Shown piece after piece: positions 12,263 through 31,976 of a stretch of 31,976 nucleotides of DNA. A model generated the notes under the pieces. That model had not been told where the DNA came from and did not search any database. It saw only the letters and a list, made by a program, of their open reading frames with translations. Source of the DNA: a virus; the UHGV virus genome UHGV-0322013; one strand, written 5' to 3'. Numbering within the stretch: the stretch's first letter is position 1; every line of letters starts with the position of its first letter. The translations under genes and the position numbers were made by a program.

Positions 12263-12268
12263 TGGTTA

Positions 12269-13564: not shown

Positions 13565-13631
13565 ATATTGAATACCTTACTTTCTTTATGTGCTATACTA
13601 TTGTTATATCAACATATAGCGCATTAGGGTT

Positions 13632-14153: not shown

Positions 14154-15065
14154 TTATCGAATTCCTTTATTCAGTTGCGCCTTGAGCTTGCGGTATGTCT
14201 CTACATCCCCTTTGTTTGCTGCCGCTTCCATCTGCTTTTCAATCGCAGAAATATTTGCAGCAACAGCGTGTCCCTGAATGGGTTCATCAGGTAACGGGGC
14301 TTCTGAAACAGGCTTGGCTCGAGGCTTGAGAGTTAAACGTTCTGACAGTCGAGTGAGTTCAATCAGCGCGGATTGCCCGTCCATCGCCAGCAACTGGCGT
14401 GTTTTCTCAGGATTAGCACCAAGGTGATACATGAGAGCAGCGGATTTCTCCGGGAAGAGGCGCATGATGTCGGCACCGACTGCTGGCGGCACCAGTTGCA
14501 TGAATGCATCCTCTTTCTCCTGATAGTCAGGGATATTGAGCTTTTCCGCTGCGTCGTAGTGCTTACGGGCTGCCTCGACGTATTGCGCTGATTGCTGGGT
14601 GAACTCCTGAGTTTTGCGACCCTGCTCGGCGACAGCCTGGCTTCGTGCGTCCATAGCCTTGATCTGCCATTCACTGTTTGCCTGCTGGAAGGCAGCCAGT
14701 GCGCGGCTCTGGTCATAGTCGTACTTAGCCAGCGCATCTTCGGAAAGATAATCGTTAGGGTCTGGTTGTTTTGGTAACTCAGGGTTCACCCGCAGGTGCT
14801 CCGGCAACTCCCCACGCTTAACCGCTTCCATCTGCTGCTCAAGCTCACGCTGGCGTTTGCGTTCGATGCGGCGACGGGCAAATTCAGCATTAGTTGCCGG
14901 GTATTGTTTTGGTTTCTCATCGTCTTTCAGGACAATCTCGAAGCCTTCTTCCTGACCTGCGTTGTCGTTGGCATTATCGACAACTAAGCCATCAGCAGAT
15001 GCCGCTGCATGATTGCCGGGCAGGGTTAATTCTTCAGAAGCCTGAATGTCGGTGGTTTGGTCCAT
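14154..15065 (-). CDS. Scaffolding protein, P22 gp8-like
   Basis: 303 aa as in P22 gp8, with long near-identical stretches ([99 protein letters not shown]). Confidence 0.95.
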
Positions 15066-15078
15066 GATTAACTCTCTC

Positions 15079-18744: not shown

Positions 18745-19210
18745 GGTTGAATAGCTCCTTGATACGAGAGCGTCGCTTATCGCGATCTCCCTTATCAGGT
18801 GTCACGTCTTCAACTTGCGACTGCTCTTTGAGGCCCAAATCACGGGCGATGATGTTAGCGTTGAGAAGGTCAGCGGCTGCGCCAGAAAATTTCTGGTCGT
18901 AGATGATGTCTTCCGCTCGTGATGTGACGTCAGAAAAACCTTCCATTGACCGGAAGGTTCCCCACGTTTGCCTGGTGATATCAAGGAAGGTACACAATCC
19001 TGAAATAGTCATGGCTCGCATCTTAGGGACATTAGCCTTAATTATTTCTCCCTGATATGAAAATACCTTACCCTCCCATAGTGGGTTATCATCAGCCCAC
19101 TCGAAGTATTCACAACAAGCTGCCCACAGCGCCTCAGGCGATTCGAATTTAGGATTTCGCCCATGACTACTGCGGGCCTCCCAAAATCGGTTGCCCTTTG
19201 GTGCTGCCAT
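18722..19210 (-). CDS. Terminase small subunit, P22 gp3-like
   Basis: 162 aa, same length as P22 gp3; N-terminus [46 protein letters not shown] matches as recalled. Confidence 0.9.
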
Positions 19211-19215
19211 ATTGA

Positions 19216-19305
19216 TTATTTCCCTTCTGCTTGCTTATCCCATTCATCGCGGAATTTGGATGGGTTGTCGAAGCCCTGAGAGCCTGAACAAACTTTGATT
19301 ACCAT
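19216..19305 (-). CDS. Possible 29-aa micro-ORF coupled between orf64 and the small terminase gene
   Basis: Hand-translated [29 protein letters not shown]; its ATG overlaps the orf64 stop (TAATG) and AAGGAG sits 8 nt upstream. Not in the ORF track; coordinates approximate. Confidence 0.25.
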
Positions 19306-19499
19306 TACTTAGCTCCTTTCTGCTTGCCTGTGTTTGATGTCGTTTCAGCAGCAGCCCCAGAGCAATTAACGCTACCCGCAACACCATATCCATAACCAGT
19401 CTTGAAGAAATTGTTGCCAGTAAATTGGTTAACAATCTTCCCGCAGCACGGGCAGCGTTGGCATTGGCAATAAGGGGATTGATTATTCCAGTGATACAT
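19305..19499 (-). CDS. Small cysteine-rich hypothetical protein (possible zinc ribbon)
   Basis: Internal start of track ORF 19305..19574 with RBS GGAGAAACAAG-ATG: MYHWNNQSPYCQCQRCPCCGKIVNQF... (64 aa, CxC...CxxC). Confidence 0.5.
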   Translation of the reverse strand: MYHWNNQSPYCQCQRCPCCGKIVNQFTGNNFFKTGYGYGVAGSVNCSGAAAETTSNTGKQKGAK

Positions 19500-19872
19500 C
19501 TTGTTTCTCCTGAATGAATGGCAGGAAGTGATTAACCATCCTGTCCAGCATGTAACAGTACGTCTCGTTGGCATCTTCAGGCCTTGTCGTCACGCCGACA
19601 TCAGAGCAAACGTAAAAGCAGACGTGGGCGCACTCATGAACGAGCGTAGCGATCTGCTGATCGAATACTCCAATCAGATAGCATCGCTCACCCGTATCAG
19701 TGTTTTCATAGTTGCTTGCAAACCCAAGATTGAATGGCTTCTCATCCCCGCTGCCGCCAAGGAATTTATCAGCGTGCTGAAACTGTTCTCTGGTTGTTGC
19801 GAGGTAGACATGTGCACTTTGAAACAGCGGAATGGTGAACGCCGGGAGTTTGTGCCATTTGGCCTTAGCCAT
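19483..19872 (-). CDS. Hypothetical protein with an HExxH motif (possible minimal zinc metallopeptidase)
   Basis: 129 aa; motif LVHECAHVCF; GGAGTG RBS 5 nt upstream; same orientation as the late operon. An equal-length antisense ORF exists but lacks these features. Confidence 0.6.
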   Translation of the reverse strand: MAKAKWHKLPAFTIPLFQSAHVYLATTREQFQHADKFLGGSGDEKPFNLGFASNYENTDTGERCYLIGVFDQQIATLVHECAHVCFYVCSDVGVTTRPEDANETYCYMLDRMVNHFLPFIQEKQDVSLE

Positions 19873-19873
19873 A

Positions 19874-20116
19874 TCACACTCCAGCGGTGAACAGGTCTAA
19901 CGCTTCCTTCGACTTACGCACCGCTTCGATAGTGCGGGTCGTGATATCCGAATTAGCGCCGCCTGACTGGAAGTGAATTTTGAATAGCTCAAGCTTCAGT
20001 TCGTCAGTGCCAATGAACTGAAATGCTTCTTCTGCGGCTGCGTTCTGGTTCATGACCAGCTTGTAAATCTCTAACTGGAATTTCTGTTCTTCAGTCATGG
20101 GAATAATCTCTGCCAT
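19874..20116 (-). CDS. Hypothetical protein (80 aa)
   Basis: Track ORF with GGAG RBS 6 nt upstream of ATG; its stop abuts the orf129 start. Confidence 0.55.
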   Translation of the reverse strand: MAEIIPMTEEQKFQLEIYKLVMNQNAAAEEAFQFIGTDELKLELFKIHFQSGGANSDITTRTIEAVRKSKEALDLFTAGV

Positions 20117-20216
20117 TGTTGGCTCCGTTTATCCGTTAAAAGGGATATCAGTTAAGTTATCCCGTGTAGGGTATAAGCCATTATCAAGCCCACCCGTAGA
20201 TAGGCTTTGTAATGAC

Positions 20217-20405
20217 TTACCCCAGCTTTGCTCGCACCAGTGCATCTTTAGCTTCGAGCAGCTTGCGGAGACCTGCTGACTTTTCAGCACTGTCAGGCAG
20301 TGATTCATCCATCAGTGTCGCAAGGTCACCGATTGGCTTACTTACTTCCTGCAGATGCGCGGGGAGGTGTTGATAAGCGAAATACTTCATGATTGGAGAT
20401 GACAT
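20217..20405 (-). CDS. Hypothetical protein (62 aa)
   Basis: Track ORF with RBS GAGGG upstream of ATG, first gene after the post-Rz terminator. Confidence 0.5.
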   Translation of the reverse strand: MSSPIMKYFAYQHLPAHLQEVSKPIGDLATLMDESLPDSAEKSAGLRKLLEAKDALVRAKLG

Positions 20406-20422
20406 TATTTACCCTCGGTTAG

Positions 20423-20447
20423 TAAAAAGCCTCGCTATTACGAGGCT
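20423..20447 (-). terminator. Rho-independent terminator downstream of Rz
   Basis: Minus strand AGCCTCG-TAATAG-CGAGGCT followed by TTTTT. Confidence 0.55.
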
Positions 20448-20455
20448 ATGATTGT

Positions 20456-20893
20456 TCATTTCAGGCACTGCGTGTTGATATATTCCTGCAGGTAGTTAAC
20501 CTGCGCGGTTATCTTGTCGATTCCACTTCGGAGACGGTAATAATTGAGTTCAGCATCTGCTGTAAGTCCTGGGCTTTCTCCATCGCCCATGCCGCTGGCT
20601 CCGGTCGTTGACTTTGCACAGGTGGCGGCGACTTGCAGGCGCTTACGCCCAGCAGAAACATCAGCACGGAGACTTTCAATAGTCGCGTTAGCATCAGCAA
20701 GCTCCTTTGTGTATCTGGCGTCAAGTTCTGCTACATCACGTTGACGCTTCTGCATGTCAGCGATTGTGGATGTGGCCTTATCGCGCTGTTCTTTATAGGC
20801 GATGGCGTTATCACGGTAATGATTAACAGCCCATGACAGGCAAACGATGATGCAGATAACCAGAGCGGAGATAATCGCGGTTACTCTGCTCAT
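20456..20893 (-). CDS. Rz: Spanin inner-membrane subunit Rz (lambda-like N-terminal half, divergent C-terminal half)
   Basis: [31 protein letters not shown] matches lambda Rz as recalled; the rest diverges; 145 aa. Confidence 0.9.
20509..20694 (-). CDS. Rz1: Spanin outer-membrane lipoprotein subunit Rz1, embedded in the +1 frame of Rz
   Basis: Internal start of track ORF 20509..20724: [20 protein letters not shown]... with lipobox and proline-rich segment, as in lambda Rz1. Confidence 0.75.
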
Positions 20894-21366
20894 ACCTCAA
20901 TCTCTCTGACCGCTCCGCCAGCCTCTTTGAATTTTGCAATCAGGCTGTCAGCCTTATGCTCGAACTGGCCATAACCAGCACCCGGCAGTGAAGCCCAGAT
21001 ATTGCTACAACGGTCGATAGCCTGACGGATATCACCGCGATCAATCATCGGCAAAGCGCCACGTTCCTTAATCTGCTGCAGCGCAACAGCGTCCTGGCTT
21101 TTGGGAGAGAAGTCTTTCAGGCCAAGCTGCTTACGATAGGCATCCCACCAACGGGAAAGAAGCTGGTAACGTCCGGCTGCTGTTGATTTGAGCTTTGGGT
21201 TTAGCGTGACAAGTTTGCGAGGGTGATCGGAGTAATCAGTGAATAGCTCTCCGCCTACAATGACGTCATAACCATGATTTCTGGTTTTCTGACGTCCGTT
21301 ATCAGTTCCCTCCGACCACGCCAGCATATCGAGGAACGCCTTACGTTGATTATTGATTTCCACCAT
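20890..21366 (-). CDS. R: Endolysin R (lytic transglycosylase), lambda R
   Basis: 158 aa, [49 protein letters not shown]... essentially identical to lambda R as recalled. Confidence 0.95.
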
Positions 21367-21673
21367 CTTCTACTCCGGCTTTTTTAGCAGCGAAGCGTTT
21401 GATAAGCGAACCAATCGAGTCAGTACCGATGTAGCCGATGAACACGCTCGTTATATAAGCGAGATTGCTACTTAGTCCGGCGAAGTCGAGAAGGTCACGA
21501 ATGAACCAGGCGATAATGGCGCACATCGTTGCGTCGATTACTGTTTTTGTAAACGCACCGCCATTATACCTGCCGCGAAGGTACGCCATTGCAAACGCAA
21601 GGATTGCCCCGATGCCTTGTTCCTTTGCCGCGAGAATAGCGGCTAACAGGTCATGTTTTTCTGGCATCTTCAT
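21350..21673 (-). CDS. S: Holin/antiholin S (S107/S105 dual start), lambda S
   Basis: 107 aa starting [34 protein letters not shown]; upstream sequence TTATTGGGGGTAAGACATGAAGATGCCAG as in lambda. Confidence 0.95.
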
Positions 21674-21790
21674 GTCTTACCCCCAATAAGGGGATTTGCT
21701 CTATTTAATTAGGAATAAGGTCGATTACTGATAGAACAAATCCAGGCTACTGTGTTTAGTAATCAGATTTGTTCGTGACCGATATGCACG

Positions 21791-21828
21791 GGCAAAACGG
21801 CAGGAGGTTGTTAGCGCAACCTCCTGCC
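21791..21828 (-). terminator. Perfect 12-bp GC-rich palindrome (GGCAGGAGGTTG / CAACCTCCTGCC) with a short U-tract on the minus strand, between pR' and S
   Basis: Read directly; followed on the minus strand by GTTTTGCC. Confidence 0.5.
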
Positions 21829-21963
21829 ACCCGCTTTCACGAAGCCAGCCATTGCGCTGGTTTTCTTTTATGCAAAGCACACCGCACCGTAGCCACAGCG
21901 GATAAGGTGATTATTTTTGTCTGTCTGGTATTTGGTTTGATGTGCTTTCAGAAAGGCCGTGCT

Positions 21964-22000
21964 TAAAACGCAAAAAGCCCCGAGCTATTAACTCAGGGCT
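21964..22000 (-). terminator. tR'-like terminator ending a short pR' leader RNA (about 65 nt)
   Basis: Minus strand AGCCCTGAG-TTAATAG-CTCGGGGCT (9-bp stem with one G-U pair) followed by TTTTTGCGTTTT. Confidence 0.65.
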
Positions 22001-22029
22001 TTATTTAACGAGTGCATTTATCCATCGTT

Positions 22030-22064
22030 GGGTCAAATTTACCCAACTTTATTCAAAAAGTCAA
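22030..22064 (-). promoter_or_regulatory. Late promoter pR' with overlapping qut region
   Basis: Minus strand TTGACT, 17 bp, TAAATT, just downstream of the Q stop; matches the lambda pR' arrangement as recalled. Confidence 0.7.
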
Positions 22065-22106
22065 TATTATGCCGTTAATATGTTGCCATCCGTGGCAATC
22101 ATGCTG

Positions 22107-22730
22107 CTAACGTGTGACCGCATTCAAAATGTTGTCTGCGATTGACTCTTCTTTGTGGCATTGCACCACCAGAGCGTCATACAGCGGCTTAACAGTGCGT
22201 GACCAGGTGGGTTGGGTAAGGTTTGGGATTAGCATCGTTACAGCGCGATATGCGGCGCTTGCTGGCATCCTGGAATAGCCGACGCCTTTGCATCTTCCGC
22301 ACTCTTTCTCGACAACTCTCCCCCACTGCTCTGTTTTGGCAATATCAACCGCACGGCCTGTACCGTGGCAATCTCTGCATCTTGCGCCCGGCGTCGCGGC
22401 ACTACGGCAATAATCCGCATAAGCGAATGTTGCGAGCACTTGCAGTACCTTTGCCTTAGTATTTCCTTCAAGTTTTGCAACGCCACGGTATTTCCCCGAT
22501 ACCTTGTGTGCAAATTGCATCAGATAGTTGATAGCCTTTTGTTTGTCGTTCTGGCTGAGCTCATGCTTACCGCAGAATGCAGCCATTCCGAATCCGGCTT
22601 GTGATTGCGCCATCCCCATAGCAGCCATCACATCAGTACCGGAAAGAGAGTCAGAAGCCGTAGCCCGTGGTGAGTCGCTCATCATCGGGCTTTTTGGCGA
22701 ATGAAATTTAGCTACGCTTTCGAGTCTCAT
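22107..22730 (-). CDS. Q: Late antiterminator Q (lambda Q)
   Basis: 207 aa beginning MRLESVAKFHSPKSPMMSDSPRATASDSLSGTDVMAAMGMAQSQAGFGMAAFCG, essentially identical to lambda Q as recalled; zinc-binding CRDCHGTG...CGRCKGVG. Confidence 0.95.
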   Translation of the reverse strand: MRLESVAKFHSPKSPMMSDSPRATASDSLSGTDVMAAMGMAQSQAGFGMAAFCGKHELSQNDKQKAINYLMQFAHKVSGKYRGVAKLEGNTKAKVLQVLATFAYADYCRSAATPGARCRDCHGTGRAVDIAKTEQWGRVVEKECGRCKGVGYSRMPASAAYRAVTMLIPNLTQPTWSRTVKPLYDALVVQCHKEESIADNILNAVTR

Positions 22731-22915
22731 GGCCTTCCCCTTTTGCCCTGTTTGACCATCAGGACGCCGTTAACTATTACGTGACGCTCGCCTTTGCTGT
22801 CTCGGTTGTACTTGAGCACTGTTCCTCTTGCGCAGGAAAGCATCCTTGCCACTTCGGTCTGATTGCCTCGTGTCTGGATAAGAAGCTCTGGTATCGTTTG
22901 AATTGTGGCGTTCAT
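22727..22915 (-). CDS. ninH: NinH-like protein
   Basis: 62 aa; core KTIPELLIQTRGNQTEVARMLSCARGTVLKY...VNGVLMV resembles lambda NinH; position immediately upstream of Q. Confidence 0.7.
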   Translation of the reverse strand: MNATIQTIPELLIQTRGNQTEVARMLSCARGTVLKYNRDSKGERHVIVNGVLMVKQGKRGRP

Positions 22916-23274
22916 ACGTTCTCCAGTTCGGTGATTTTTATTCCAAGCCGTCCGCCTGGTACTTTCACACCACGAATTACGCGAATGTCATCGAATTGCT
23001 CGTCGTCTTCCGCAAATCCGGCGTGGATAAGGGAGTCGAGTAAACCTTTCAGGATGTTGTCGAGGTCGCGGCGGCGGGAATCTGGAACGTCTGCGATGAC
23101 TTTGATGCGGAGTCGTGATTTGGTGAAAATGTCTAACTTGAGTTGGCGAATGATTTGCTGAACGTCTTTTCGGTATTTCTGGCCTTTATCGCTGATGTAG
23201 TATTGGCTTTCCCGTCTTCGCCAGTAGGTGTTCAGCGACGGTGGGTACGGAAGTGTGAATCTGTATTCTGCCAT
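22912..23274 (-). CDS. rusA: Holliday junction resolvase RusA
   Basis: 120 aa; motifs TLPYPPSLNTYWR and PDSRRRDLDNILKGLLDSL...GGRL match the RusA family. Confidence 0.85.
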   Translation of the reverse strand: MAEYRFTLPYPPSLNTYWRRRESQYYISDKGQKYRKDVQQIIRQLKLDIFTKSRLRIKVIADVPDSRRRDLDNILKGLLDSLIHAGFAEDDEQFDDIRVIRGVKVPGGRLGIKITELENV

Positions 23275-23799
23275 TTATCCTCTCCCATGATTATGGTGAT
23301 ACCCCAATCGTGATTCCGCCAATTTTCTGGCATTAACGGCTAGAGATATGTCATCGTATAATCCAAGAAATATCTTTTTATTATCACTGTTTATATATGC
23401 GCCCCACTTTTTATTCTTCTTATAGTAGGCAACCCCCATTACTCCAGAGCGATTATTAATAGGCTTTTTTCTGTTCCTTGAATTCTGTTTATCATCTACA
23501 ACGCGCAAATTGCATATTCTGTTATCGCTTTTAACTCCATTTATGTGGTCAATTTCCCCATCAGGTTCACTTCCATAAAAGGATATCCATGCGATTCTAT
23601 GAGCTCGACAAACTTTTTTACTTACAGATATACGAACGTATCCTTTTTCATCTATAGAACCAGCAATCTTACCGGCATATGTTGAATTCCAGCACTCTCT
23701 TACACTTTCTCTTCTCTTGTATATAAACAAACCTGTTTCGCTATTATATTCATACAATTCATTGATTTCTTTTTGTGTTGGATATCTTTTACCGTTCAT
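23275..23799 (-). CDS. Free-standing HNH homing endonuclease with AP2-type DNA-binding region (paralog of 13632..14153)
   Basis: 174 aa; HNH core EIDHINGVKSDNRICNLRVV...NSRNR then SGVMGVAYY...KKWGA; AT-rich; start overlaps the ybcO stop (ATGA) and its stop abuts the rusA start. Confidence 0.85.
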   Translation of the reverse strand: MNGKRYPTQKEINELYEYNSETGLFIYKRRESVRECWNSTYAGKIAGSIDEKGYVRISVSKKVCRAHRIAWISFYGSEPDGEIDHINGVKSDNRICNLRVVDDKQNSRNRKKPINNRSGVMGVAYYKKNKKWGAYINSDNKKIFLGLYDDISLAVNARKLAESRLGYHHNHGRG

Positions 23800-24086
23800 G
23801 ACTTAATCTTCCCCTCCTTCAGCAGTATCGCCTGCGTCCTGATCACGCCTTCGAGGTGGTAAAGTCTGGCGTCTTTGTTGTCGAGATTATGGGTGCGTCG
23901 GTCGATTTCATCGTGACACGCGCTACAAGCCCATGCACCGATCAGGTCGTCAGGCTTCATTCCCGTTCCGCAAATTCCGGCCATCCGGTAATGTGCCAGA
24001 ACTGTAGTTTCAGGATTACCATTGCATACGCCGTAAATACGTACCTGGCATTCTCTGTTGCGCGCTTCTTTGCGTAGGTTAGCCAT
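23796..24086 (-). CDS. YbcO-like protein (DUF1364; Cys-rich putative nuclease of lambdoid nin regions)
   Basis: 96 aa, MANLRKEARNRECQVRIYGVCNGNPETTVLAHYRMAGICGTGMKPDDLIGAWACSACHDEIDRRTH resembles DLP12 YbcO as recalled. Confidence 0.6.
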   Translation of the reverse strand: MANLRKEARNRECQVRIYGVCNGNPETTVLAHYRMAGICGTGMKPDDLIGAWACSACHDEIDRRTHNLDNKDARLYHLEGVIRTQAILLKEGKIKS

Positions 24087-24808
24087 TAAGCAGCCTCCCC
24101 TGTTACTTTCAGCATTCCGTTATCGAGCAGCTTTCTGGTCAGCCACTGTTGGCCACGCCCGGTGATTTTTGTGGTGAACGATATCTGTATTCCGTGATTT
24201 GTATTGACCGCTGTTTCTTTCACTGTGAAATAGCCGCGATCCATATATTCCTGCATTGGCACATTGCGCCGGGAACCTGAAGCAATAAGGATTTTGTGAT
24301 CGCGCATCCACGCAAACAGTTTGTTTGGACCAATACCGACAACCTTTGCAAAGTTTCCAATCAAAATTCCGCTGGCTTCGCCAACTCGATCGGCAAACTA
24401 AACTTTAGGTGCGGCAATTGCGAGCTGGTTTTCCAGTTGCATTTTCTGCTCAGCAAGATCAGCAGCAAGGCGCAACGCTTCTGGTAGCGTTTTGGGGATA
24501 TTAACCGCAGCTTCTTCAAGCTCTCGCCAGCGGTCAACAAGGCGAGCGGTGAACTCTGGCGACAACTGGGCAACAACAACAATACTATCTCGCTTACCTT
24601 GTTCGCCTTCGAAGACGTAATGCTCGTACTGAACATTGAACCCTAAGTTGATGATTCTTTCGGAAACCTCAATTTGAGGAAGCCGGATAACACCATTTTT
24701 AGCCAGCGTTTCGATGGTACGTTTCACATTGTCATGACGCTTACTAACCAACTCAGCGATTTCAATGCTTGTCATTTTGATGGCATTGCCATTTATTAAC
24801 TCATTCAT
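24086..24808 (-). pseudogene. Antirepressor-like gene (Rha-type N-terminal domain plus KilAC C-terminal domain) interrupted by a single in-frame TAG at 24398-24400
   Basis: Track ORFs 24398..24808 ([33 protein letters not shown]...) and 24086..24364 are in the same frame (start coordinates differ by 444 nt); I read 11 sense codons between the TAG and the annotated TTG. Confidence 0.65.
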
Positions 24809-24971
24809 CGTCTTCTTTCTCGTACATTGAGCTATTCTGATCGCTCATCAGTTCTGCGCAGCAATCGGAGCACACGTGAACTTCCAGCACATGCAGCTTC
24901 TGACCGCAGTTAGCGCACGTTAAAGCCCGCTCGACGCTTTCTTGTTCGTAACTTCGATTTGGGTCAATCAC
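24801..24971 (-). CDS. ninF: NinF-like protein
   Basis: Hand-translated from a GTG with [67 protein letters not shown] (56 aa), closely matching lambda NinF as recalled. Not in the ORF track; coordinates approximate. Confidence 0.65.
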
Positions 24972-25150
24972 CTTGTTTTCCTCGCACGCTCTCTAAGCCA
25001 CCTGATATCCCACAGGTGAGCCGTGTAATTGAAGGTTTTTACGTCAGATTCTTTTGGGATTGGCTTGCGTTTATTTCTGGAGCGTTTCGTTGGAAGGTAT
25101 TTGCAGTTTTCGCAGATGATGTCGGTGATGCTTCGTCGCTGTCGTCTCAT
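24968..25150 (-). CDS. ninE: NinE-like protein
   Basis: Internal ATG of track ORF 24968..25195, overlapping the ninB stop (ATGA): [37 protein letters not shown]... (60 aa); size and position match lambda NinE. Confidence 0.6.
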
Positions 25151-25557
25151 TCGTACCTCCTGTCGGTAAATCTGACACCCTGACCAATAGCCCATGCTGT
25201 CGTGTACTCAATCAGGCTTGCCATGCGCTTCACGCTCATCTGCGCGCTACTTTCGCGAATGTTGACGTATTCGCCTTCAAGCCCGGGCAAAACATCAGCT
25301 TCCTGCTTTGTTGCCACTGCATGACCGCTTATCAACAAAACCTTCCATTGTTCTGGTTTTAACCATTTGCCGCACCATTGAACCTGACTTGCGATATCCG
25401 CCAGCATCGCGTGAAATTTTGCGTTCTGGTCAAGGTTGCGCTTGTAGTCAGTAATGCGGATGGTAACTGGCTTGTCTTTATCGAGTGGTGTTGCGAGGAT
25501 GGCATTTATTGCGGCTTGCTGTTGTTGCTTAGTTCGGAGGAAGATTGTTTGCTTCAT
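25147..25557 (-). CDS. ninB: NinB (Orf-family recombination mediator)
   Basis: 136 aa; [36 protein letters not shown] resembles lambda NinB (RSLDQNRKLWACLGDVSRQVEWHGRWLDAESWKCVF) as recalled. Confidence 0.8.
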
Positions 25558-25559
25558 CG

Positions 25560-25913
25560 TTACTCCTTCACTTTGATTCCAGCGGCGCGAAGAACCTCTT
25601 CAATTTCCCATCCAGCATGCACAGGATAGCGGTCTGAACCGTCGCAGCATTTATCCTTTTCGCTATATGACACCGCCACATCATCCCAATAATCGTCAGG
25701 CGCATGACCAGCCTGAATCCATATAAGATGTGCATGAGGCTTTGGTAGCTCAATTTCTATTGCCGCCCTGCTATCTATCCATGCTTGCCATGCATTATGT
25801 AAGTCTGGGTTGTGCAGGTAATCACCCAGCATTCGCTTATTAACAATTTCCTCTACTGAGATATTGAATTGCTTTGATGCCCATTGCTCGAAAGACTTTC
25901 TTGATTCGTCCAT
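25560..25913 (-). CDS. Hypothetical nin-region protein
   Basis: Track ORF 25560..25937 trimmed to the first ATG (MDESRKSFEQWASKQFNISVEEIVNKRMLGDYLHNPDLHNAWQAWIDS...); Trp/Asp-rich. Confidence 0.5.
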   Translation of the reverse strand: MDESRKSFEQWASKQFNISVEEIVNKRMLGDYLHNPDLHNAWQAWIDSRAAIEIELPKPHAHLIWIQAGHAPDDYWDDVAVSYSEKDKCCDGSDRYPVHAGWEIEEVLRAAGIKVKE

Positions 25914-25914
25914 A

Positions 25915-26130
25915 TCAATCCCCGTTAGTCGTTTCACTCACGAATCTGACAAAACCAGCCATGTTAATTTGCATGAGTTTTTTCAACACTTTGTCTCGCC
26001 GGCTACGTTTTGGTTTTGGCCTGTGGTTGAATCTTTCACAAACTGGAAGGCTTGATGATTTCCAGTACCTATTACGCCTTGCTCCATCTTCCGCCATATC
26101 GGCATGAATAAGGTCTGCGAGTGTGCTCAT
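25915..26130 (-). CDS. Hypothetical basic protein
   Basis: Track ORF 25915..26136, ATG start 10 nt after GGAG; lysine/arginine-rich middle (RPKPKRSRRDKVLKK). Confidence 0.4.
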   Translation of the reverse strand: MSTLADLIHADMAEDGARRNRYWKSSSLPVCERFNHRPKPKRSRRDKVLKKLMQINMAGFVRFVSETTNGD

Positions 26131-26144
26131 ATTCACCTCTCCAG

Positions 26145-26327
26145 TTACATTGGTTTTGTAATGTTGCTAGTCATCTTACGAATAAAAAAATGCGTACGTA
26201 GCTTTGCTTCCCACATGTAAATCTCCTCAAGGCGAGATAAATCTACGAATACCGGACCTTTGTAATCTGGTCTTGATGCCCTTATGTATGAGCTAATAGT
26301 TTGTGCATCTTGCTCGTCAAGATTCAT
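26145..26327 (-). CDS. Hypothetical protein (60 aa)
   Basis: Track ORF with RBS GAGGG 6 nt upstream of ATG. Confidence 0.45.
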   Translation of the reverse strand: MNLDEQDAQTISSYIRASRPDYKGPVFVDLSRLEEIYMWEAKLRTHFFIRKMTSNITKPM

Positions 26328-26520
26328 GACTTCCCTCTCTAACAGATTTCAGGTTATTCCACTCCGTTACCGCACTGCGATAATTCGCGGCCGCCACAGC
26401 GGCGTGGTTAGCGCAGTAGATTTGGCACCCGCTCTCCATGTCAAATATTGTCGGTGATTTTCCGCATTTACATTTTTTGGCACGCGGTGCGTCTGAACAC
26501 ATTCCGTTAACGGTGTCCAT
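26317..26520 (-). CDS. Hypothetical Cys-rich protein (possible zinc ribbon)
   Basis: 67 aa, CKCGKSPTIFDMESGCQIYCANH; strong RBS GAGGGGG upstream of ATG; first gene after the post-P terminator. Confidence 0.5.
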   Translation of the reverse strand: MDTVNGMCSDAPRAKKCKCGKSPTIFDMESGCQIYCANHAAVAAANYRSAVTEWNNLKSVREGSHES

Positions 26521-26544
26521 CAGGATCCCCCTCGTTCTTAATCC

Positions 26545-26575
26545 AATAAAAAAGGGCTACTGTGTAAATAGCCCC
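26545..26575 (-). terminator. tR2-like rho-independent terminator between the helicase gene and the nin region
   Basis: Minus strand GGGCTA-TTTACACAG-TAGCCC followed by TTTTTTATT. Confidence 0.5.
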
Positions 26576-26604
26576 TGTTATTAGCTCAGTGATGTAGATG
26601 GTCA

Positions 26605-28041
26605 TCAGAATCCTCCTTTCTTCTTGGACTGCGGTTCCTCACGTTCACGGCGGCGCATTTCAGCAGACTGTTGGTCTGTGTCATAAATAGCGCCATTTGC
26701 CTGAATGCAATACACCGTGCCGGTATTGCCATGACGATTGAGACGAAGGATTAGTTCGGTTTCACCAGGAGGAACGCTGTCATCAAAAGCACCTTCACGA
26801 TGGATCCCGACCCAATAATCGCAATCCTGTTCAATCTGCCCTGTATCTCGTGAGTCACTTGGTAATGGGCGTTTATTGGTTCGGCTTTCCAGTGCGCGGT
26901 TAAGTTGTGTCAGAAGCACAACAACGCAATCAAGCTCTTTGGCAAGGTTCTTCAGTCCTTTGGTGATCATGCCGTAAGCAAGGTCGTTGCGATCGGCCTT
27001 CTCAGCGGTCATTAGTGTCAGGTAATCGACCAGAATCATGCCAACACATCCTTTTTCTCGCTTGATTCGACGGCTTTCGCTGACGATTTGAGCCAGAGAT
27101 AATCCCGGCGTGTCGTCGATGTAAAGCAGGTCGATTTCACTCAAGCGATTGGCTGTTTCGATCGCCCTGTTGAAGTCACCATCGTAATCACCCTGATAGC
27201 CGTCATCAGCGTCATTTGTCGCCGGAAGGTAAAAAATATTCGGGTTAACACCTGACTTCTGTCCCACCAGTTTTTCCAGTATCTGATCACCTGGCATTTC
27301 AAGGCTGAACATCAGAGCGGGCTTTTTCTCATGCACTGCGCAATTGATTGCCATCTGGCTGTATAGCGTCGTTTTCCCCATCTTAGGGCGAGCTCCAATG
27401 ACAAACAGAGAGCCTTTCACCAGACCTTTCGGTGACAGCATCCTGTCCAGCGATGGGATCCCTGTGCTCATTCCCCGTTGTTCGCCTGATGGGTCAAATC
27501 GTTTCTCAAGGTCGCTAACCCAGTCTTCCATGACCTCACCAAATGAGCGAAGGCCGCGACGCGATCCGGTTTTTGCATGGTCTGTCAGTTGCGTGAAAAT
27601 CACCTGAATAGCTTCGTACTTCTGCGTTGCAGTCATTCCGTTGCGTGAATAGAGCAATTCCGTCGCTTCAGTCATGCGGTTGATGGCGTAGCGTTCCATT
27701 GCGGTTTCACGAACCTGCATTGCATAGGCAACGATGTTTGCGGCGCTTGGCGTGTTCTTTGCGATCTCAGCGATATAAGCAAAACCGCCAACAGACGCCG
27801 TTAACGATTTACGCTCCAGTTCATCGAAAAGCGTCAGGCCATCTACTGGCTTTTGCTCCCGGTGCATTCTGGTTATTTCTTCGAAAAGGATTTTGTGTGA
27901 TCTGCTGTAAAATGAATCTGGCTTCAGCATCGCTAGAACTTTCTGGACGCGCTCACTGCTGTCATCATCCAGAAGCAATCCACCAATCACCGCCTGCTCT
28001 GCCTCGATGCTATGGGGCGGCGCATAAAAATTATCGGTCAT
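26605..28041 (-). CDS. Replicative DNA helicase, DnaB family (P22 gene 12 analogue)
   Basis: Track ORF 26605..28056 trimmed to an ATG with GAGGG RBS; DnaB N-terminal motif SIEAEQAVIGGLLLD and Walker A GARPKMGKTT; 478 aa. Confidence 0.9.
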   Translation of the reverse strand: MTDNFYAPPHSIEAEQAVIGGLLLDDDSSERVQKVLAMLKPDSFYSRSHKILFEEITRMHREQKPVDGLTLFDELERKSLTASVGGFAYIAEIAKNTPSAANIVAYAMQVRETAMERYAINRMTEATELLYSRNGMTATQKYEAIQVIFTQLTDHAKTGSRRGLRSFGEVMEDWVSDLEKRFDPSGEQRGMSTGIPSLDRMLSPKGLVKGSLFVIGARPKMGKTTLYSQMAINCAVHEKKPALMFSLEMPGDQILEKLVGQKSGVNPNIFYLPATNDADDGYQGDYDGDFNRAIETANRLSEIDLLYIDDTPGLSLAQIVSESRRIKREKGCVGMILVDYLTLMTAEKADRNDLAYGMITKGLKNLAKELDCVVVLLTQLNRALESRTNKRPLPSDSRDTGQIEQDCDYWVGIHREGAFDDSVPPGETELILRLNRHGNTGTVYCIQANGAIYDTDQQSAEMRRREREEPQSKKKGGF

Positions 28042-28930
28042 CGTGTTCACCCTCACGAACTTTCAGGTAGGTATTGTCGTTAAGCAGGAAATCAAATCCC
28101 TTTTTGTGCCAGACGGTTCCGCGTTGATGGTTTAGGCGTTCTTCGAACATCCATCGGCAATTTTCGCCTACGTAGCTCAAATAATTTCTCCAGTCCTGCA
28201 TCGTGAACCCATGCCCGTCAAGCTGGCGGGTTATCACTCCGGCTTTGCGCCAGAACGTTCGGATCTGGTTTTTACGCTTGTCATTCAGTGCGCGGATTTT
28301 TGGCGCTTCAGGAAGGATTTCGTGGTAAGCATCGACAACATCCTGACAGCTAACGGAAGGTTTTTTCTTGTCAGACTTTTTGTCTGCTGTGGCACTCTCT
28401 AATACGTCAGTATTAGAGATAATATTATTATATTCTTTATCTGTGGTAATTTGCTGGTAATCTGCTGGTACAGTATTGCTTACAGGCATTGGTATTTCTG
28501 GCTTTGAGGTGGTAATTTGCTGGTAATCTGCTGGTACAAAATTTGACTGATAATCGTCATATTTCTCTACCGAGAAAACTGAGAATTTACCGTGTGAAAC
28601 CCAGTCAATCATGCCGAGTTTTTTGAACTTTCTAAGCAGGTACTGAACGCGATCTGGTTTGAGTCCTGTTTCAAACGCCAGAGAGTTTCTACCGCCAAGT
28701 AGCTTCCCTCTGCCTACCAGAATTTCTCCTGCGTCAGTCATTACATACTCAGGCGTATGCTTTGCTTTGAGGATTAAGTGAACCCACAGATGCGCAGCTT
28801 CTGCGTCCTTGTAAAACGGCACATCCATAATTTTACGGTGCAGCAAGGCATACCCCTTACCGCTGCTTTGATGCGGTTGTTGTAGCCTTCTGGCCTCTCT
28901 GGCTTCGGCTAGATTAGATATGTTACTCAT
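28031..28930 (-). CDS. Replication initiation protein (lambda O / P22 gene 18 analogue) containing the origin
   Basis: 299 aa directly upstream of the helicase gene and overlapping its start; AAGGAG RBS; DNA iterons lie inside the coding region (repeated peptide [10 protein letters not shown]). Confidence 0.8.
28410..28538. repeat. Candidate replication origin: two identical 29-bp direct repeats built from TGCTGGTAAT-type iterons, adjacent to an AT-rich stretch, inside the replication initiator gene
   Basis: TGGTAATTTGCTGGTAATCTGCTGGTACA occurs at about 28444-28472 and 28510-28538; AT-rich run TATTAGAGATAATATTATTATATTCTTTAT at about 28410-28440. Confidence 0.7.
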
Positions 28931-29068
28931 GACCTTTCTCCTTCTGCATCAGCTTCACTTTTTCCAACTCAGCCCGGAATCGACCAGGCTGCTTGAAGCT
29001 GGACAGGAAGCGATCACGTAGTATGTGTTTGTGAATTTTGTCCTGGTAAGGACTGAGTGGTTTTGTCA

Positions 29069-29473
29069 TTAAGCCTCCTCTACTTCGTAATCAGCGAAGT
29101 AACCAGTAGACATTTTTAAAAACCTTGATTCGGTGACTGTGTAAGCCTTCCTTCCTTTCCTCTCCTTGCCTTCAGGCTCTATGAGGTGGCACGAATAAAT
29201 GATTCTGCGCTGCCAGTTGCCTGGCATTTCCACCACTGCCAGAACCTCAAGAATTCTCTTTCCTTCAGCATCAGCGGTGTAAAAACACTGATCACCATAA
29301 CCACAATCGGCTGGCTCATAATTTTTGTGACAACCGCCAATCCAGCGCTCATCGGTATGCACGTTGCCGTCATAAGACTGATAATCTGTGCATACGAAGA
29401 TAAATGGATATACGGTTTCGAACTTGTCACCGGCCTTTATGCCGGTGTTTACTTGCTTGGTTTGTCCTGGCAT
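29069..29473 (-). CDS. Hypothetical Cys/His-rich protein between cII and the replication genes
   Basis: Track ORF 29069..29680 trimmed to the ATG at 29473 with RBS AGGAG ([65 protein letters not shown]...); 134 aa. The longer form would overlap cII. Confidence 0.6.
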
Positions 29474-29482
29474 AATTACTCC

Positions 29483-29546
29483 TGTTACTTGGCGTAACAC
29501 AGTGTGCTTAAGCGTCCAGACTGCTACCAACAGCTGGGCGTTTTTC
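29483..29546 (+). ncRNA. Candidate oop-like antisense RNA overlapping the 3' end of cII
   Basis: Plus-strand promoter-like TTTACT, 17 bp, CATAAT, then a terminator inside the cII 3' end (CGTCCAG...CTGGGCG followed by TTTTTCTTTT). Arrangement mirrors lambda oop; boundaries approximate. Confidence 0.35.
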
Positions 29547-29786
29547 TTTTGTGAGAATCGATGCCACCTGCTGAGCAAGTCTCGCCATCTCATCATCAAC
29601 AACTCCCCATTCAAGAACAGCCAGAAGCATGGCCATCTTTGGGATAAAGCTGTCTTTCCATCGCGAAATTTGCGATTCATTAATCCCTAACGCGTCGGCA
29701 ACCTTTCGCTGACCACGTACAGCAATTCGATTCAGGATGTTGCTTGTAATTGCATTCGCTTTCTTGCGAGTACTTGTAAGTTGCAT
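29508..29786 (-). CDS. cII: Transcriptional activator CII
   Basis: Track ORF 29508..29846 trimmed to the ATG where the upstream DNA matches the lambda cII leader (AAGGAAATACTTACATATG); protein shares ALGINESQISRWK...MLLAVLEWGVVDDEMARLA with lambda CII (92 aa). Confidence 0.9.
   Translation of the reverse strand: MQLTSTRKKANAITSNILNRIAVRGQRKVADALGINESQISRWKDSFIPKMAMLLAVLEWGVVDDEMARLAQQVASILTKEKRPAVGSSLDA
29750..29763 (+). promoter_or_regulatory. CII-binding site of a pRE-like promoter (TTGC-N6-TTGC) inside the 5' end of cII, oriented toward cI
   Basis: Plus strand TTGCTTGTAATTGC. Confidence 0.6.
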
Positions 29787-29865
29787 ATGTAAGTATTTCC
29801 TTAGATAACAATTGATTGAATGTATGCAAATAAATGCATACACCATAGGTGTGGTTTAATTTGAT

Positions 29866-29897
29866 GCCCTTTTTCAGGGCTGGGATGTGTAAGAGCG
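29866..29897 (-). promoter_or_regulatory. nutR (boxA CGCTCTTACACA and boxB GCCCTGAAAAAGGGC) between cro and cII
   Basis: The minus strand carries both boxes in lambda nutR order; boxB is a 5-bp stem with a GAAAA loop. Confidence 0.8.
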
Positions 29898-29905
29898 TTG
29901 ATAAC

Positions 29906-30136
29906 TTAAGCAGCCATTAATTCAGGCCAGATGCTTTCCCAATCAACCGGATGAAGGTCTTTGCGAGTCACTTCACCATTGCTGAACTTCTCAATCAGAA
30001 CACAAAGTGCTGCGCCCAATTCATGATTACGGCTAAGTGCTTTCCTCAAATAGCCGATAGAAGTTCCGCACTTGGTGGCAAATTCTCTCTGCTCTTCCAG
30101 TGAAAGGGAGTTCAGATACAAGCGGAGTTCTTCCAT
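29906..30136 (-). CDS. cro: Cro-like repressor (HTH), divergent from cI
   Basis: 76-aa ORF with AAGGAG RBS, first gene of the rightward early operon opposite cI; not similar to lambda Cro. Confidence 0.7.
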   Translation of the reverse strand: MEELRLYLNSLSLEEQREFATKCGTSIGYLRKALSRNHELGAALCVLIEKFSNGEVTRKDLHPVDWESIWPELMAA

Positions 30137-30244
30137 TTGCTATCTCCTTCCCGTTGTTGAATAAGGTAAGTTTACCTGCAGGTAAAAAACAAATCAATAC
30201 CCACAGGTTATTTACCAACAGGTAATCAAAGATAGAATTAAATC
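30137..30244. promoter_or_regulatory. Right operator/promoter region (OR, pR, pRM) with repeated TTACCTGCAGGTAA-type palindromic half-sites
   Basis: TTTACCTGCAGGTAAA (about 30171-30186), CCCACAGGTTA and TTTACCAACAGGTAATC (about 30200-30228); TAGAAT -10-like hexamer 7 nt before the cI ATG (near-leaderless, as for lambda pRM). Confidence 0.7.
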
Positions 30245-30931
30245 ATGGATAAATACGAACAAAGACGACTAAGGCTGATAGAGATAAGAGACCGATTCTG
30301 TAATGGAAAGGCCTCAGAGTTGGCTCGTCGAATAGAAAGGGAACCATCATACGTTTCCAGAATGCTGTATCCGGAAGGAAAAAGCGGAAAAAAACGCATT
30401 GCTGACGATATGATGGAACTAATTGAAAAATCTTTTAATCTCCCACGCGGATGGATGGACATGCTTGCAGATAGCAAAGTTGGATCTGCAGACCATCTTG
30501 AGTTTGCGGGTAACGTTCGTGCGGGTTTTGTTCCGGTAATTGGTGAAGCCGTTTTGGGAGTTGATGGCTCAGTGGATATGATTGAATTCAGATCCGGTTG
30601 GTTAAGCATCTACAGTGGCGATAAAGATGCTTACGGTCTGAAGGTTAAGGGTGACAGCATGTGGCCAAGGATTCAGTCAGGAGAATATGTTGTTATTGAA
30701 CCAAATACGCCAGTACATCCAGGTGATGAAGTCTTTGTAAGGACCAAAGATGGTCATAACATGATAAAGATCATGAACAAAACAAGAGACGGAGACTATC
30801 AGTTTAGTAGTATAAACAGCGATCACCGTCCAATCACTCTTCCTGTTGAAGAAGTTGATAAAATGCATTTTGTTTCAGCTATTGTGAAACACACTAGGTA
30901 CGTAGACCAGGACGATCTGCCAAAATTTTGA
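30245..30931 (+). CDS. cI: CI-type prophage repressor (N-terminal HTH, C-terminal LexA/S24-like autocleavage domain)
   Basis: 228 aa; C-terminal domain with GDSMWPRI and downstream lysine, typical of S24 peptidase-type repressors; divergent from cro across the operator region. Confidence 0.85.
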   Translation: MDKYEQRRLRLIEIRDRFCNGKASELARRIEREPSYVSRMLYPEGKSGKKRIADDMMELIEKSFNLPRGWMDMLADSKVGSADHLEFAGNVRAGFVPVIGEAVLGVDGSVDMIEFRSGWLSIYSGDKDAYGLKVKGDSMWPRIQSGEYVVIEPNTPVHPGDEVFVRTKDGHNMIKIMNKTRDGDYQFSSINSDHRPITLPVEEVDKMHFVSAIVKHTRYVDQDDLPKF

Positions 30932-30945
30932 GGATAAAGCAGCAA

Positions 30946-31242
30946 ATGTTTATACCAGGTATAGTGGTCGCTGTTGTAATCATCTGCTTCATATGGGCAA
31001 AGTTATCTCCTGTAAGCTCTAAGCATACAGCTGAACTCATGAAGAAGAAGCATCTTATACATGAGGCAGAAACGATAATTAAGAAGTTCAAAGGCATGTC
31101 ATATGACGACATGTCATCAGATCAGATTGCTATATATAAATGCGCCATTGAGCGTCTTGACTACTTAAACGGACTCAAACCCAAACACACCCCGGTAGAA
31201 TCAAAATTGCCGCAATGGCCAAGCAATCCAAATAGCTTCTGA
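30946..31242 (+). CDS. Small membrane protein co-transcribed with cI (rexAB position); unknown function
   Basis: Track ORF 30928..31242 overlaps the cI stop; probable ATG at 30946: MFIPGIVVAVVIICFIWAKLSPVSS... (98 aa, one N-terminal TM helix then a charged soluble region); followed by a terminator and then OL/pL. Confidence 0.6.
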   Translation: MFIPGIVVAVVIICFIWAKLSPVSSKHTAELMKKKHLIHEAETIIKKFKGMSYDDMSSDQIAIYKCAIERLDYLNGLKPKHTPVESKLPQWPSNPNSF

Positions 31243-31253
31243 CATCTCCTTTC

Positions 31254-31277
31254 AGCCCGCAAAGCGGGCTTTTTTAT
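31254..31277 (+). terminator. tImm-like rho-independent terminator ending the cI operon
   Basis: AGCCCGC-AAA-GCGGGCT followed by TTTTTTAT. Confidence 0.7.
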
Positions 31278-31296
31278 ATCAATCCAAAAAATTAAT

Positions 31297-31380
31297 TACC
31301 TGAAAATTCAAACAGGTAAACTCTCACACCAATTTTATTTACCTGCAGGTATAGACAACAGTTTTACCTGTAGGTATATT
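31297..31380. promoter_or_regulatory. Left operator/promoter region (OL, pL) with three TACCTG...CAGGTA operator sites
   Basis: TTACCTGAAAATTCAAACAGGTAA, TTTACCTGCAGGTATA and TTTACCTGTAGGTATATT; candidate pL -35 TAGACA and -10 TATATT spaced 17 bp. Confidence 0.65.
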
Positions 31381-31420
31381 TTAAGCCATCAGCAGGACGC
31401 ACTAACCACCATGAAGGTGA

Positions 31421-31451
31421 TGCTCTTAAAAATTTAGCCCTGAAGAAGGGC
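31421..31451 (+). promoter_or_regulatory. nutL (boxA GCTCTTAAA and boxB GCCCTGAAGAAGGGC)
   Basis: TGCTCTTAAAAATTTAGCCCTGAAGAAGGGCAGCATTCAAAGCAGAAGGCTTTGGGGTGTG matches lambda nutL as recalled. Confidence 0.85.
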
Positions 31452-31719
31452 AGCATTCAAAGCAGAAGGCTTTGGGGTGTGGTGAAGCCAGCTAGTCACT
31501 GGCAAGTGCTTACCTACTGTTGAGCGGTGAAGCGCTCCCAACGCTAGCAATAGCGTGGACGAGATGGGGAGCCGCGGGCGATAAGGCCGCCATAACGCGC
31601 ACGTTGTCGCATGGAAAAATCACTGGGGTGCCGGTTATACCCCTCCGAATGAGACTCAACAAGCTGGAGCTAGACTACCAGCCACCACACCACCAAAGCT
31701 AACTGACAGGAGAATCCAG

Positions 31720-31976
31720 ATGGATGCACAAACACGCCGCCGCGAACGTCGCGCAGAGAAACAGGCTCAATGGAAAGCAGCAAATCCCCTGTTGGTTGGG
31801 GTAAGCGCAAAACCAGTTAACCGCCCTATTCTCTCGCTGAATCGCAAACCGAAATCACGAGTAGAAAGCGCACTGAATCCGATAGACCTTACGGTGCTGG
31901 CTGAATACCACGAACAGATTGAAAGCAACCTGCAACGTATTGAGCGCAAGAATCAGCGCACATGGTACAGCAAGCC
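31720..31976 (+). CDS. N: Antitermination protein N (lambda N), 5' partial; continues beyond the window
   Basis: MDAQTRRRERRAEKQAQWKAANPLLVGVSAKPVNRPILSLNRKPKSRVESALNPIDLTVLAEYHEQIESNLQRIERKNQRTWYSK is essentially identical to lambda N over the 85 visible residues; RBS AGGAG. Confidence 0.95.
   Translation, partial: MDAQTRRRERRAEKQAQWKAANPLLVGVSAKPVNRPILSLNRKPKSRVESALNPIDLTVLAEYHEQIESNLQRIERKNQRTWYSK

Follow-up and report, generated by a model that had tools for sequence, protein, structure and literature searches.

UHGV-0322013, a P22-like lambdoid phage with lambda-type regulatory and lysis blocks and a change of ancestry within the Rz gene

Lambdoid phages are classically defined as phages that recombine with lambda to give viable hybrids. 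P22-like phages that carry a lambda Q gene at 98–99% identity, an identical qut site and "typically mosaic" early regions have already been described (PMC2629481), and a study that used the same HK and mEp phages as the comparison below has examined how interdependent genes are transferred together in lambdoid phages (PMC9836094). Here we compare these phages with the virus genome UHGV-0322013, and in particular with its regulatory and lysis genes. The window, which is the whole stretch of 31,976 nucleotides (nt) that was analysed, extends from the 3′ end of an IntS-type int gene to 85 codons into the N gene; the rest of the element, which leads from N round to int, falls beyond it. Nearly all of its genes lie on the minus strand, which corresponds to the plus strand of lambda.

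HK620 (NC_002730, Lederbergvirus HK620) is a P22-like Escherichia coli phage with lambda-type Q, S and R, and its O, P, ninB, ninE, ninF, roi, rusA and ninH genes and pR′/terminator leader are 96–100% identical to the window. It differs in that its N is annotated as H19B/21-like, neither its immunity region nor its N matches the window at the nucleotide level, its packaging and procapsid genes have no such match over 11.5–19.2 kb, the 3′ part of its Rz is of a third type, its late leader contains a long insert, and mnt and ant are annotated in it as remnants only. Dewey and Louie (PQ850600 and PQ850616) share the virion genes at 96–100% identity over 4.7–19.2 kb, including an HNH gene between scaffold and coat, as well as the S-R-Rz cassette with its joint (95.5%) and a lambda-type N, but they have another immunity region, replication genes that carry the annotation of a DnaC-like loader and do not match O and P of the window at the nucleotide level, no nucleotide match in the immI region, another tailspike body and gp20, and a lambda-like long late leader. 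In mEp043 c-1 (NC_019706, Aguilavirus), cro, cI, the operators, a 98-amino-acid (98-aa) open reading frame (ORF), nutL, a 195-nt segment of the N leader and N match the window at 97.3%, and the Q-S-R-Rz region matches at 92–100%; this phage differs in its virion genes, which are annotated as tail genes of a lambda-like siphovirus (tape measure, major tail protein), its primase-type replication gene and its cII. The lysis cassettes of HK97 and HK022 combine lambda-type S and R with HK97-type Rz/Rz1 and have the same intragenic junction as the window, to which they align in one piece at 94.9% over Rz and 207 nt of R (20456–21100), with 100% identity over 20802–20862 and point differences only. 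Lambda itself (NC_001416) shares N, both boxB sequences, the cII leader, Q, the S leader, S, R and the first 31 codons of Rz, whereas immunity, replication, most of the nin region, the 6S leader, the 3′ part of Rz, Rz1 and all virion genes differ. P22 (AF217253) shares the order and homology of the virion genes, immI with sar, Rz/Rz1 (92% nt identity) and lambda-type gene 23 (Q) and gene 13 (S), whereas its gene 24 (N), c2/cro, genes 18/12 and lysozyme 19 have at most a distant relationship to the window and its tailspike body has none.

Taken together, the window very probably represents a stretch, about 32 kb long, of a natural E. coli phage that is temperate, lambdoid and P22-like (Lederbergvirus-type) and whose genome is a mosaic of interchangeable modules. 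Its genes run from the tailspike through immI, the P22-type injection, tail, head and packaging genes, small ORFs, Rz/Rz1, R, S, the late leader, pR′, Q, the nin region, P and O, cII, nutR, cro, cI and OL/pL to nutL, in agreement with the lambdoid order (int … N, cI, cro, cII, replication, nin, Q, lysis, virion), the remainder of which is seen in a related prophage. When the lambda-like sequence was delimited by blastn with a stringent mismatch penalty, six blocks were obtained, each 93–99% identical to lambda and together amounting to 2.6 kb of the 11.5-kb region examined at 20456–31976 (Table 1). The initial annotation, made from the letters of this region, had judged N (85 visible residues), nutL, nutR, the cII leader, Q, the S leader, S and R to be essentially identical to lambda, and local blastn against lambda, P22 and HK620 reproduces that list, with E-values from 0 to 1e-39. 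Its fear that the similarity might prove low and confined to the protein level was not borne out: the proteins share 84 of 85 (N, 98.8%), 206 of 207 (Q, 99.5%), 106 of 107 (S, 99.1%) and 155 of 158 residues (R, 98.1%) with their lambda counterparts. By comparison, Rz is 62.5% identical to lambda Rz. The proteins cI, cro, O and P are only 23–27% identical to those of lambda (25–26% for O and P) and are thus of other origin. The assignment of cI, cro, the operators, the replication genes and the morphogenetic module to sources other than lambda therefore stands, the sources being of mEp043, HK620/HK542 and P22/Dewey type, and the joining of a P22-like virion and immI to lambda-type regulatory and lysis blocks is supported by blastn to P22, by Pfam and by the Rfam match of sar. 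A table of identities in 100-nt steps against eight reference genomes shows abrupt switches between blocks, from 0% to 95–100% and back. The window is not a lambda × P22 cross, because for every block a natural E. coli phage is more closely related: HK97, HK542 and HK544 in the case of S-R-Rz, mEp043 in that of immunity and N, HK620 and HK542 in that of O/P and nin, and Dewey in that of the virion.

Ancestry also changes within Rz. A four-way alignment shows that the first 31 codons are lambda-identical and that the remainder is of the P22 gene 15/HK97 type. Mismatches specific to P22 end at 20816 and those to lambda begin at 20801, so the exchange point falls within 20802–20815. An intragenic change of ancestry had been proposed before, with lambda similarity extending over the N-terminal half of the protein; the change is upheld, but near-identity to lambda ends at about codon 31 of 145. 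A junction at the middle of Rz was rejected: default BLAST stretches the lambda match to 20645, but stringent scoring and site-by-site counts end near-identity at 20802; from there down to about 20645 the similarity to lambda is only about 75%. Rz1 lies wholly within the P22/HK97-type part, and 4 of its 61 residues differ from the P22 Rz1 frame (93% identity), against 45% identity to lambda Rz1. The hydrophobic N-terminus of Rz, its Pfam Phage_lysis match and the lipobox cysteine of Rz1 identify an embedded two-component spanin, but not one of the lambda type, as positions 20456–20801 are 60% identical to lambda and Rz1 is of the HK97 type. This fits a published classification in which a single i-spanin family includes o-spanins of two families, HK97-type and lambda-type (Kongari 2018, PMC6139136). 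Upstream, S retains the dual start of lambda intact (Met1-Lys2-Met3, ATGAAGATG at 21665–21673), and R is unrelated to P22 gp19 (25% aa identity).

The pattern in Rz could in principle arise with no recombination in the gene, if the 5′ part, which encodes the membrane anchor and overlaps R, were more constrained and the 3′ part diverged faster; indeed, conservation of the first ~113 nt of Rz extends to a great many lambdoid phages. However, rate variation cannot produce opposite rankings. Between the first 31 and the last 346 nt of the gene, identity to P22 rises from 55% to 92% and identity to lambda falls from 97% to 60%; in addition, R immediately upstream has no P22 homologue, and synonymous sites in the 5′ part are identical to lambda. 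Because the ranking of lambda and P22 reverses across the junction, a change of ancestry is preferred and uneven constraint as the sole cause is very improbable. It is also evident that the junction did not arise in this genome. The same R/Rz joint is found in one piece at 94–96% identity in 57–61 phage records, including HK97, HK022, HK75, HK544, epsilon34, g341c, Sf101, IME10 and Dewey, and is therefore inherited.

The end-points of the BLAST matches, which come from about 320 S-R-Rz cassettes, suggest why the change in ancestry may lie where it does. Lambda-type phages match from query position 326 upward (20781 of the window upward), in Stx phages and phages with RrrD-type lysozymes the match is confined to Rz and ends at its start codon (query 438), in Salmonella P22-like phages it reaches query 404, and many phages match only query 323/326–438, at 90–96%, others stopping at 438, 404, 377 or 322. 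The end-points thus cluster at the start of Rz and at the end of a conserved 5′ block, which at 90–96% is common to cassettes with different endolysins and different Rz 3′ parts. This block appears to be a recurrent exchange point at which many lysis cassettes switch partners.

We further considered whether the arrangement was produced during assembly. A metagenome scaffold of human origin in ENA is 100% identical to the window over 10456–30893, a 51-kb contig of the isolate assembly GCA_012072085.1 aligns over 10456–29803 with no gap at 99.85% identity and beyond this has a different immunity region, and three further assemblies are 98–99% identical over 10705–23253. The exact Rz protein is found on contigs with the same neighbours. 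A Logan contig, 99.99% identical over 1–12219, continues from int into yfdC and mlaA, so that the element is a prophage beside yfdC/mlaA. The related prophage OkiPb01675 in a complete genome has a tRNA-Arg gene between int and yfdC, and it carries the same cII-nutR-cro-cI block at 93–100% identity followed by nutL and N. If the contig had been mis-joined between two lambdoid prophages at the conserved S/R/Rz sequence, the Rz junction would be an artefact. Assemblers do appear to break at this place, as the short-read Logan contig (32,097 bp) is calculated to end at about 20830, inside the conserved Rz block, and the 100% match is itself a metagenome scaffold. Nevertheless, the isolate assembly and the three others span the junction, OkiPb01675 repeats the early arrangement, and the sequenced phage isolates HK97, HK022, epsilon34, Dewey and others have the identical R/Rz joint, so that a chimera is extremely improbable.

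As lambda and P22 are the references by which the blocks were first recognised, one might suspect a hybrid of the two made in the laboratory, like the classical lambda immP22. Such a hybrid would be expected to match its parents at 100%, but the blocks are 93–99% identical to lambda and 72–92% to P22, and each is closer to a wild phage (HK542, HK97, mEp043, HK620 or Dewey). The sequence is, moreover, found in a human-metagenome scaffold and in assemblies of wild isolates, integrated beside yfdC/mlaA, and we give this origin practically no credence. Since independent assemblies carry the same arrangement in a prophage beside yfdC/mlaA, both an assembly chimera and a laboratory hybrid are rejected in favor of a natural mosaic phage.

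The lambda-like late region consists of two blocks separated by 160 bp of other origin. Lambda's 194-nt 6S leader is absent, and a terminator scan finds in its place a short P22/HK620-type hairpin with a T-run; lambda has an unrelated stretch of about 400 nt at this position. About 34 nt including the hairpin (21972–22005) match HK620 and P22, and the whole stretch is 95–100% identical to mEp043. The sequence of pR′/qut and of the first ~35 transcribed bases is of lambda type, but over 22001–22100 it is 97–98% identical to HK620, P22 and HK97 and 86% to lambda; between the promoter hexamers there are two mismatches to lambda and none to HK620. The earlier reading of pR′ as lambda-identical is accordingly right as to type, but the promoter is closer to these other phages. 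Q, pR′ with a predicted binding element and the terminator hairpin at 21974–22002 would together constitute a Q/qut antitermination system of the lambda kind.

The early region shows a similar interleaving. N and both boxB sequences are of lambda type (the boxB sequences in nutL and nutR are lambda's own, and boxA is identical in nutR and has one change in nutL), but the 1.5 kb between them is that of mEp043 at 97%, with TTACCTGNNGGTAA-like operators and a cI that is 23–27% identical to the repressors of lambda and P22. The visible part of N belongs to the N36 family of boxB-binding arginine-rich peptides, and the presence of this peptide together with boxA and boxB in both early leaders points to an N/nut system of lambda type. 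In cII the coding part is of HK620 type and the leader of lambda type; a TTGC-N6-TTGC box lies at 29740–29753, and identity to HK620 and HK542 is 92–100% over 29601–29800.

In the leader of N, 195 nt replace the apical part of lambda's leader hairpin. Their flanks can pair as a long stem at the base (31468–31484 with 31683–31700; fold z = −3.6), and the segment is 99.5% identical in 19 phage records, which exceeds the conservation of its flanks and extends over about 11 phages that are otherwise mosaic; among the carriers are Sf6, HK446, HK544, HK633, mEp043, mEp213 and Sf101, most records having no annotated feature there. It belongs to no Rfam family, only chance matches being found at E ≤ 1, and a covariation test is impossible because all database copies are 99.5% identical. 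It is conceivable, but rather unlikely, that this segment is a functional structured RNA (for instance, an alternative RNase III or translation-control domain for N), or that the 5′ block of Rz is kept partly as a recombination linker.

These comparisons can be explained by a model in which modules are drawn from a common lambdoid gene pool and interacting parts are kept together. Lambda-type N is accompanied by lambda-type boxB in nutL and nutR, which flank an unrelated mEp043-type cI-cro-operator cassette, and lambda-type Q likewise by lambda-type pR′/qut. The periplasmic part of Rz and Rz1 contact each other in the periplasm, and here the former is found with the whole embedded Rz1, both being of P22/HK97 type. 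The borders of modules fall at gene boundaries or in short stretches common to all the phages. The border in Rz corresponds to the distal edge of the ~113-nt membrane-anchor block, which is kept across different endolysin and Rz/Rz1 types, and homologous recombination within this shared block would swap the flanks with neither gene damaged.

Several points weigh against this reading of the window as a mosaic of working modules. The antirepressor-like roi gene (24086–24808, minus strand; KilAC/ANT type) has an in-frame TAG at codon 137 (24398–24400), where HK620 has GAG, which leaves the 136-aa N-terminal domain alone. The TAG is missing from two other relatives but also present in GCA_012072085.1 and the ENA scaffold; found in independent assemblies, the mutation is real and inherited, and some decay has occurred. 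Whereas the identities, the breakpoints, the presence of the junction in other phages and the intact state of the ORFs and sites are observed directly, recombination within shared blocks is the classical model, and it is the mechanism that we infer here; that the modules function as in lambda and P22 is argued by analogy, inducibility and the functions of N, Q and Rz/Rz1 being predicted from sequence; and the direction and timing of each exchange are not recoverable from it. We found no evidence that contradicts the interpretation as a natural mosaic phage.

Table 1. Positions of features in the UHGV-0322013 window and their resemblance to reference phages.
Feature	Position	Strand	Description
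P22-type virion module	303–19210	minus	gp3, gp2, gp1, gp8, (HNH), gp5, gp4, gp10, gp26, gp14, gp7, gp20, gp16, (immI), gp9 tailspike
immI module	2320–3827		ant 2320–3255 minus; sar RNA 3256–3323 plus; arc 3324–3485 minus; mnt 3576–3827 plus
Rz (i-spanin), 145 aa	20456–20893	minus	Pfam Phage_lysis 1.6e-35; 62.5% to lambda Rz, 89% to P22 gp15
Rz segment	20456–20801		lambda 60%, with a 21-nt indel just beyond the junction; P22 92%; HK97 94%
Rz1 (o-spanin), 61 aa	20509–20694	minus	+1 frame, embedded in Rz; lipobox LLGVSAC
Conserved 5′ block of Rz (~113 nt, transmembrane-domain coding part)	20778–20893	minus	from the spread of BLAST end-points
Lambda-like block: Rz 5′ end (first ~92–113 nt), R, S, S leader	20781–21844		lambda 46078–45015; 96.5% over 1064 nt
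Crossover interval in Rz, codons 27–31	20802–20815		higher coordinates lambda, lower P22/HK97
Rz segment	20817–20862		lambda 98%; P22 87%
Rz segment (first 31 nt)	20863–20893		lambda 97%; P22 55%
R endolysin, 158 aa	20890–21366	minus	lambda-type transglycosylase; 98.1% aa to lambda R; nt 90–99%
S holin/antiholin	21350–21673	minus	99.1% aa to lambda S; Pfam Phage_holin_3_1
S leader, lambda-identical	21674–21846	minus	1 mismatch to lambda 45013–45185; 100% over 21701–21800
Late leader, non-lambda	21847–22005	minus	tR′-like terminator hairpin 21974–22002 directly after qut
Lambda-like block: Q and pR′ core	22022–22731		lambda 44594–43885; 97.6%
pR′ late promoter and Q-binding region	22036–22064	minus	TTGACT, 17-nt spacer, TAAATT; promoter scan
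Q late antiterminator, 207 aa	22107–22730	minus	206/207 to lambda Q, 96% to P22 gp23; Pfam Antiterm
nin region	22727–25557	minus	ninH, rusA, HNH endonuclease, ybcO-like (hkbD), roi, ninF, ninE, ninB; 96–99% to HK620/HK97
Lambda-like block: ninE/F	24806–25143		lambda 42434–42097; 93.2%
Replication module	26605–29069	minus	P (DnaB-like helicase), O, DUF2740 gene; HK620/HK022-type, also HK542-type; 97–100% to HK620; O and P 98% to HK620/HK542
Accessory gene, 134 aa	29069–29473	minus	between cII and the DUF2740/O genes; phrog_30464 2.7e-95
cII, 92 aa	29508–29786	minus	HK620/HK542-type; 56% aa to lambda cII, 77% to P22 c1
nutR sites	29784–29897	minus	boxA CGCTCTTAC 29889–29897; boxB GCCCTGAAAAAGGGC 29866–29880
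Lambda-like block: nutR and cII leader up to the cII ATG	29784–29897	minus	lambda 38362–38249; 99.1%, 113/114 nt
Immunity region, mEp043 type	29906–31380		97.3% to mEp043 c-1 in one piece over 29864–31700
cro	29906–30136	minus	
OR operators	30172–30185; 30212–30225		TTACCTGCAGGTAA; TTACCAACAGGTAA
cI	30245–30931	plus	Peptidase_S24
Membrane ORF, 98 aa	30946–31242	plus	after cI
OL/pL	~31295–31380		three similar operators
nutL sites	31387–31481	plus	boxA TGCTCTTAA 31421–31429; boxB GCCCTGAAGAAGGGC 31437–31451
Lambda-like block: nutL	31387–31481	plus	lambda 35583–35489; 96.8%
N-leader segment, non-lambda	31482–31676	plus	195 nt in place of lambda's ~80 nt
Lambda-like block: N Shine-Dalgarno and N	31686–31976		lambda 35394–35104; 99.0%
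N antiterminator, first 85 codons	31720–31976	plus	runs off the end of the window; Pfam N36 2.2e-26

The virion module contains syntenic homologues of P22 genes 3, 2, 1, 8, 5, 4, 10, 26, 14, 7, 20, 16 and 9, with the Pfam families P22_portal, P22_CoatProtein, Phage-scaffold, P22_Tail-4, Phage_stabilise, P22_gp7, Inj_translocase, Phage_P22_gp16 and Head_binding. A P22-like virion was thus called correctly, but the identity of 80–90% estimated by eye was somewhat too high, the long high-scoring segment pairs of blastn being 72–87% identical to P22; overall the virion genes range from 65% to 97% against P22, and against Dewey they are 96–100% identical in 250-nt steps. The immI module, with mnt, arc and ant (Pfam P22_AR_N/C, Arc and Mnt) and the antisense RNA sar, is 89–90% identical to P22 37986–39537, with 250-nt windows of up to 97–98%, and sar (Rfam RF00262; 95.6 bits versus a gathering score of 43) lies exactly between arc and ant.

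Downstream of the P22-type head-binding domain, the body of the tailspike (gene 303–1880, minus strand) has only a weak beta-helix match in Pfam and no nucleotide match in any of the eight references; the identical protein is found on 10 public contigs. The tail needle gp26 (9250–10098, minus strand; 282 aa) has an Sf6-type C-terminal knob (PF16532, 3.7e-108) next to procapsid genes of P22 type, a further mosaic joint that falls within a gene. In the place of the P22 gene sieA, between gene 16 and mnt, there are a 143-aa predicted lipoprotein (3844–4275, minus strand; phrog_6823) and a 107-aa coiled-coil membrane ORF (4381–4704, plus strand), which are possible candidates for superinfection-exclusion morons, although PADLOC gives no support. 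Two free-standing HNH_3 genes are inserted exactly between conserved genes and look like homing endonucleases. The first (13632–14153, plus strand) lies between scaffold and coat, as in phage Dewey. The second (23275–23799, minus strand; HNH_3 1.1e-16) separates rusA from the ybcO-like gene, a site at which all eight references lack an insert, and is the exception to the identity of the nin region with HK620 and HK97.

Between P and ninB, a segment with four small ORFs (25560–26520, minus strand; phrog_343, DUF7301/phrog_1785, phrog_21123 and phrog_6308) replaces the HK620 counterpart, and its last ~280 bp alone match HK97. The 134-aa accessory gene has no match in Pfam or PADLOC, but an identical protein occupies the same site in numerous E. 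coli prophages whose immunity and replication modules differ (815 index blocks). All ORFs without an assigned function fall into existing PHROG families. Screening of these ORFs for defence functions, including the 134-aa protein, the 143-aa lipoprotein and the 98-aa ORF after cI, gave only weak coiled-coil noise in PADLOC and nothing in Pfam. No tRNA genes were found in the window. Just downstream of int, 37 nt (197–233) are 92% identical to lambda 27474–27510, which we take to be the tI/sib terminator region; the integrase here is of a different, IntS-like type.

It had also been asked whether the window belongs to a known phage. When both halves of it were searched against 50,697 phage records, none of these reached a coverage of 80% for either half. 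HK620, HK633 and HK542 match the early and lysis part best (about 60% covered at 96%), and Dewey and Louie the virion part (63% covered at 96%), so that identity with a known phage was rejected. Among 5,426 complete E. coli genomes, the best match covers 74% of the window at 96.4%. This combination of known modules is new among deposited phage genomes but present in public E. coli assemblies. Taking the species threshold to be about 95% nucleotide identity over the whole genome, the window falls within no existing species and would represent a new species-level member. The blocks with 93–99% identity to lambda make it plausible that crosses with lambda would yield viable hybrids.

The mosaicism of this phage is of the textbook lambdoid kind, with nothing mechanistically new, and matters little beyond annotation. 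It does offer a clean example of partners that travel together, namely N with nut, Q with qut, the repressor with its operators, and the periplasmic domain of Rz with Rz1. The boundary in Rz, defined at the nucleotide level and placed at the edge of a widely shared 5′ block, is mildly useful in that it is consistent with recombination at short conserved linkers.

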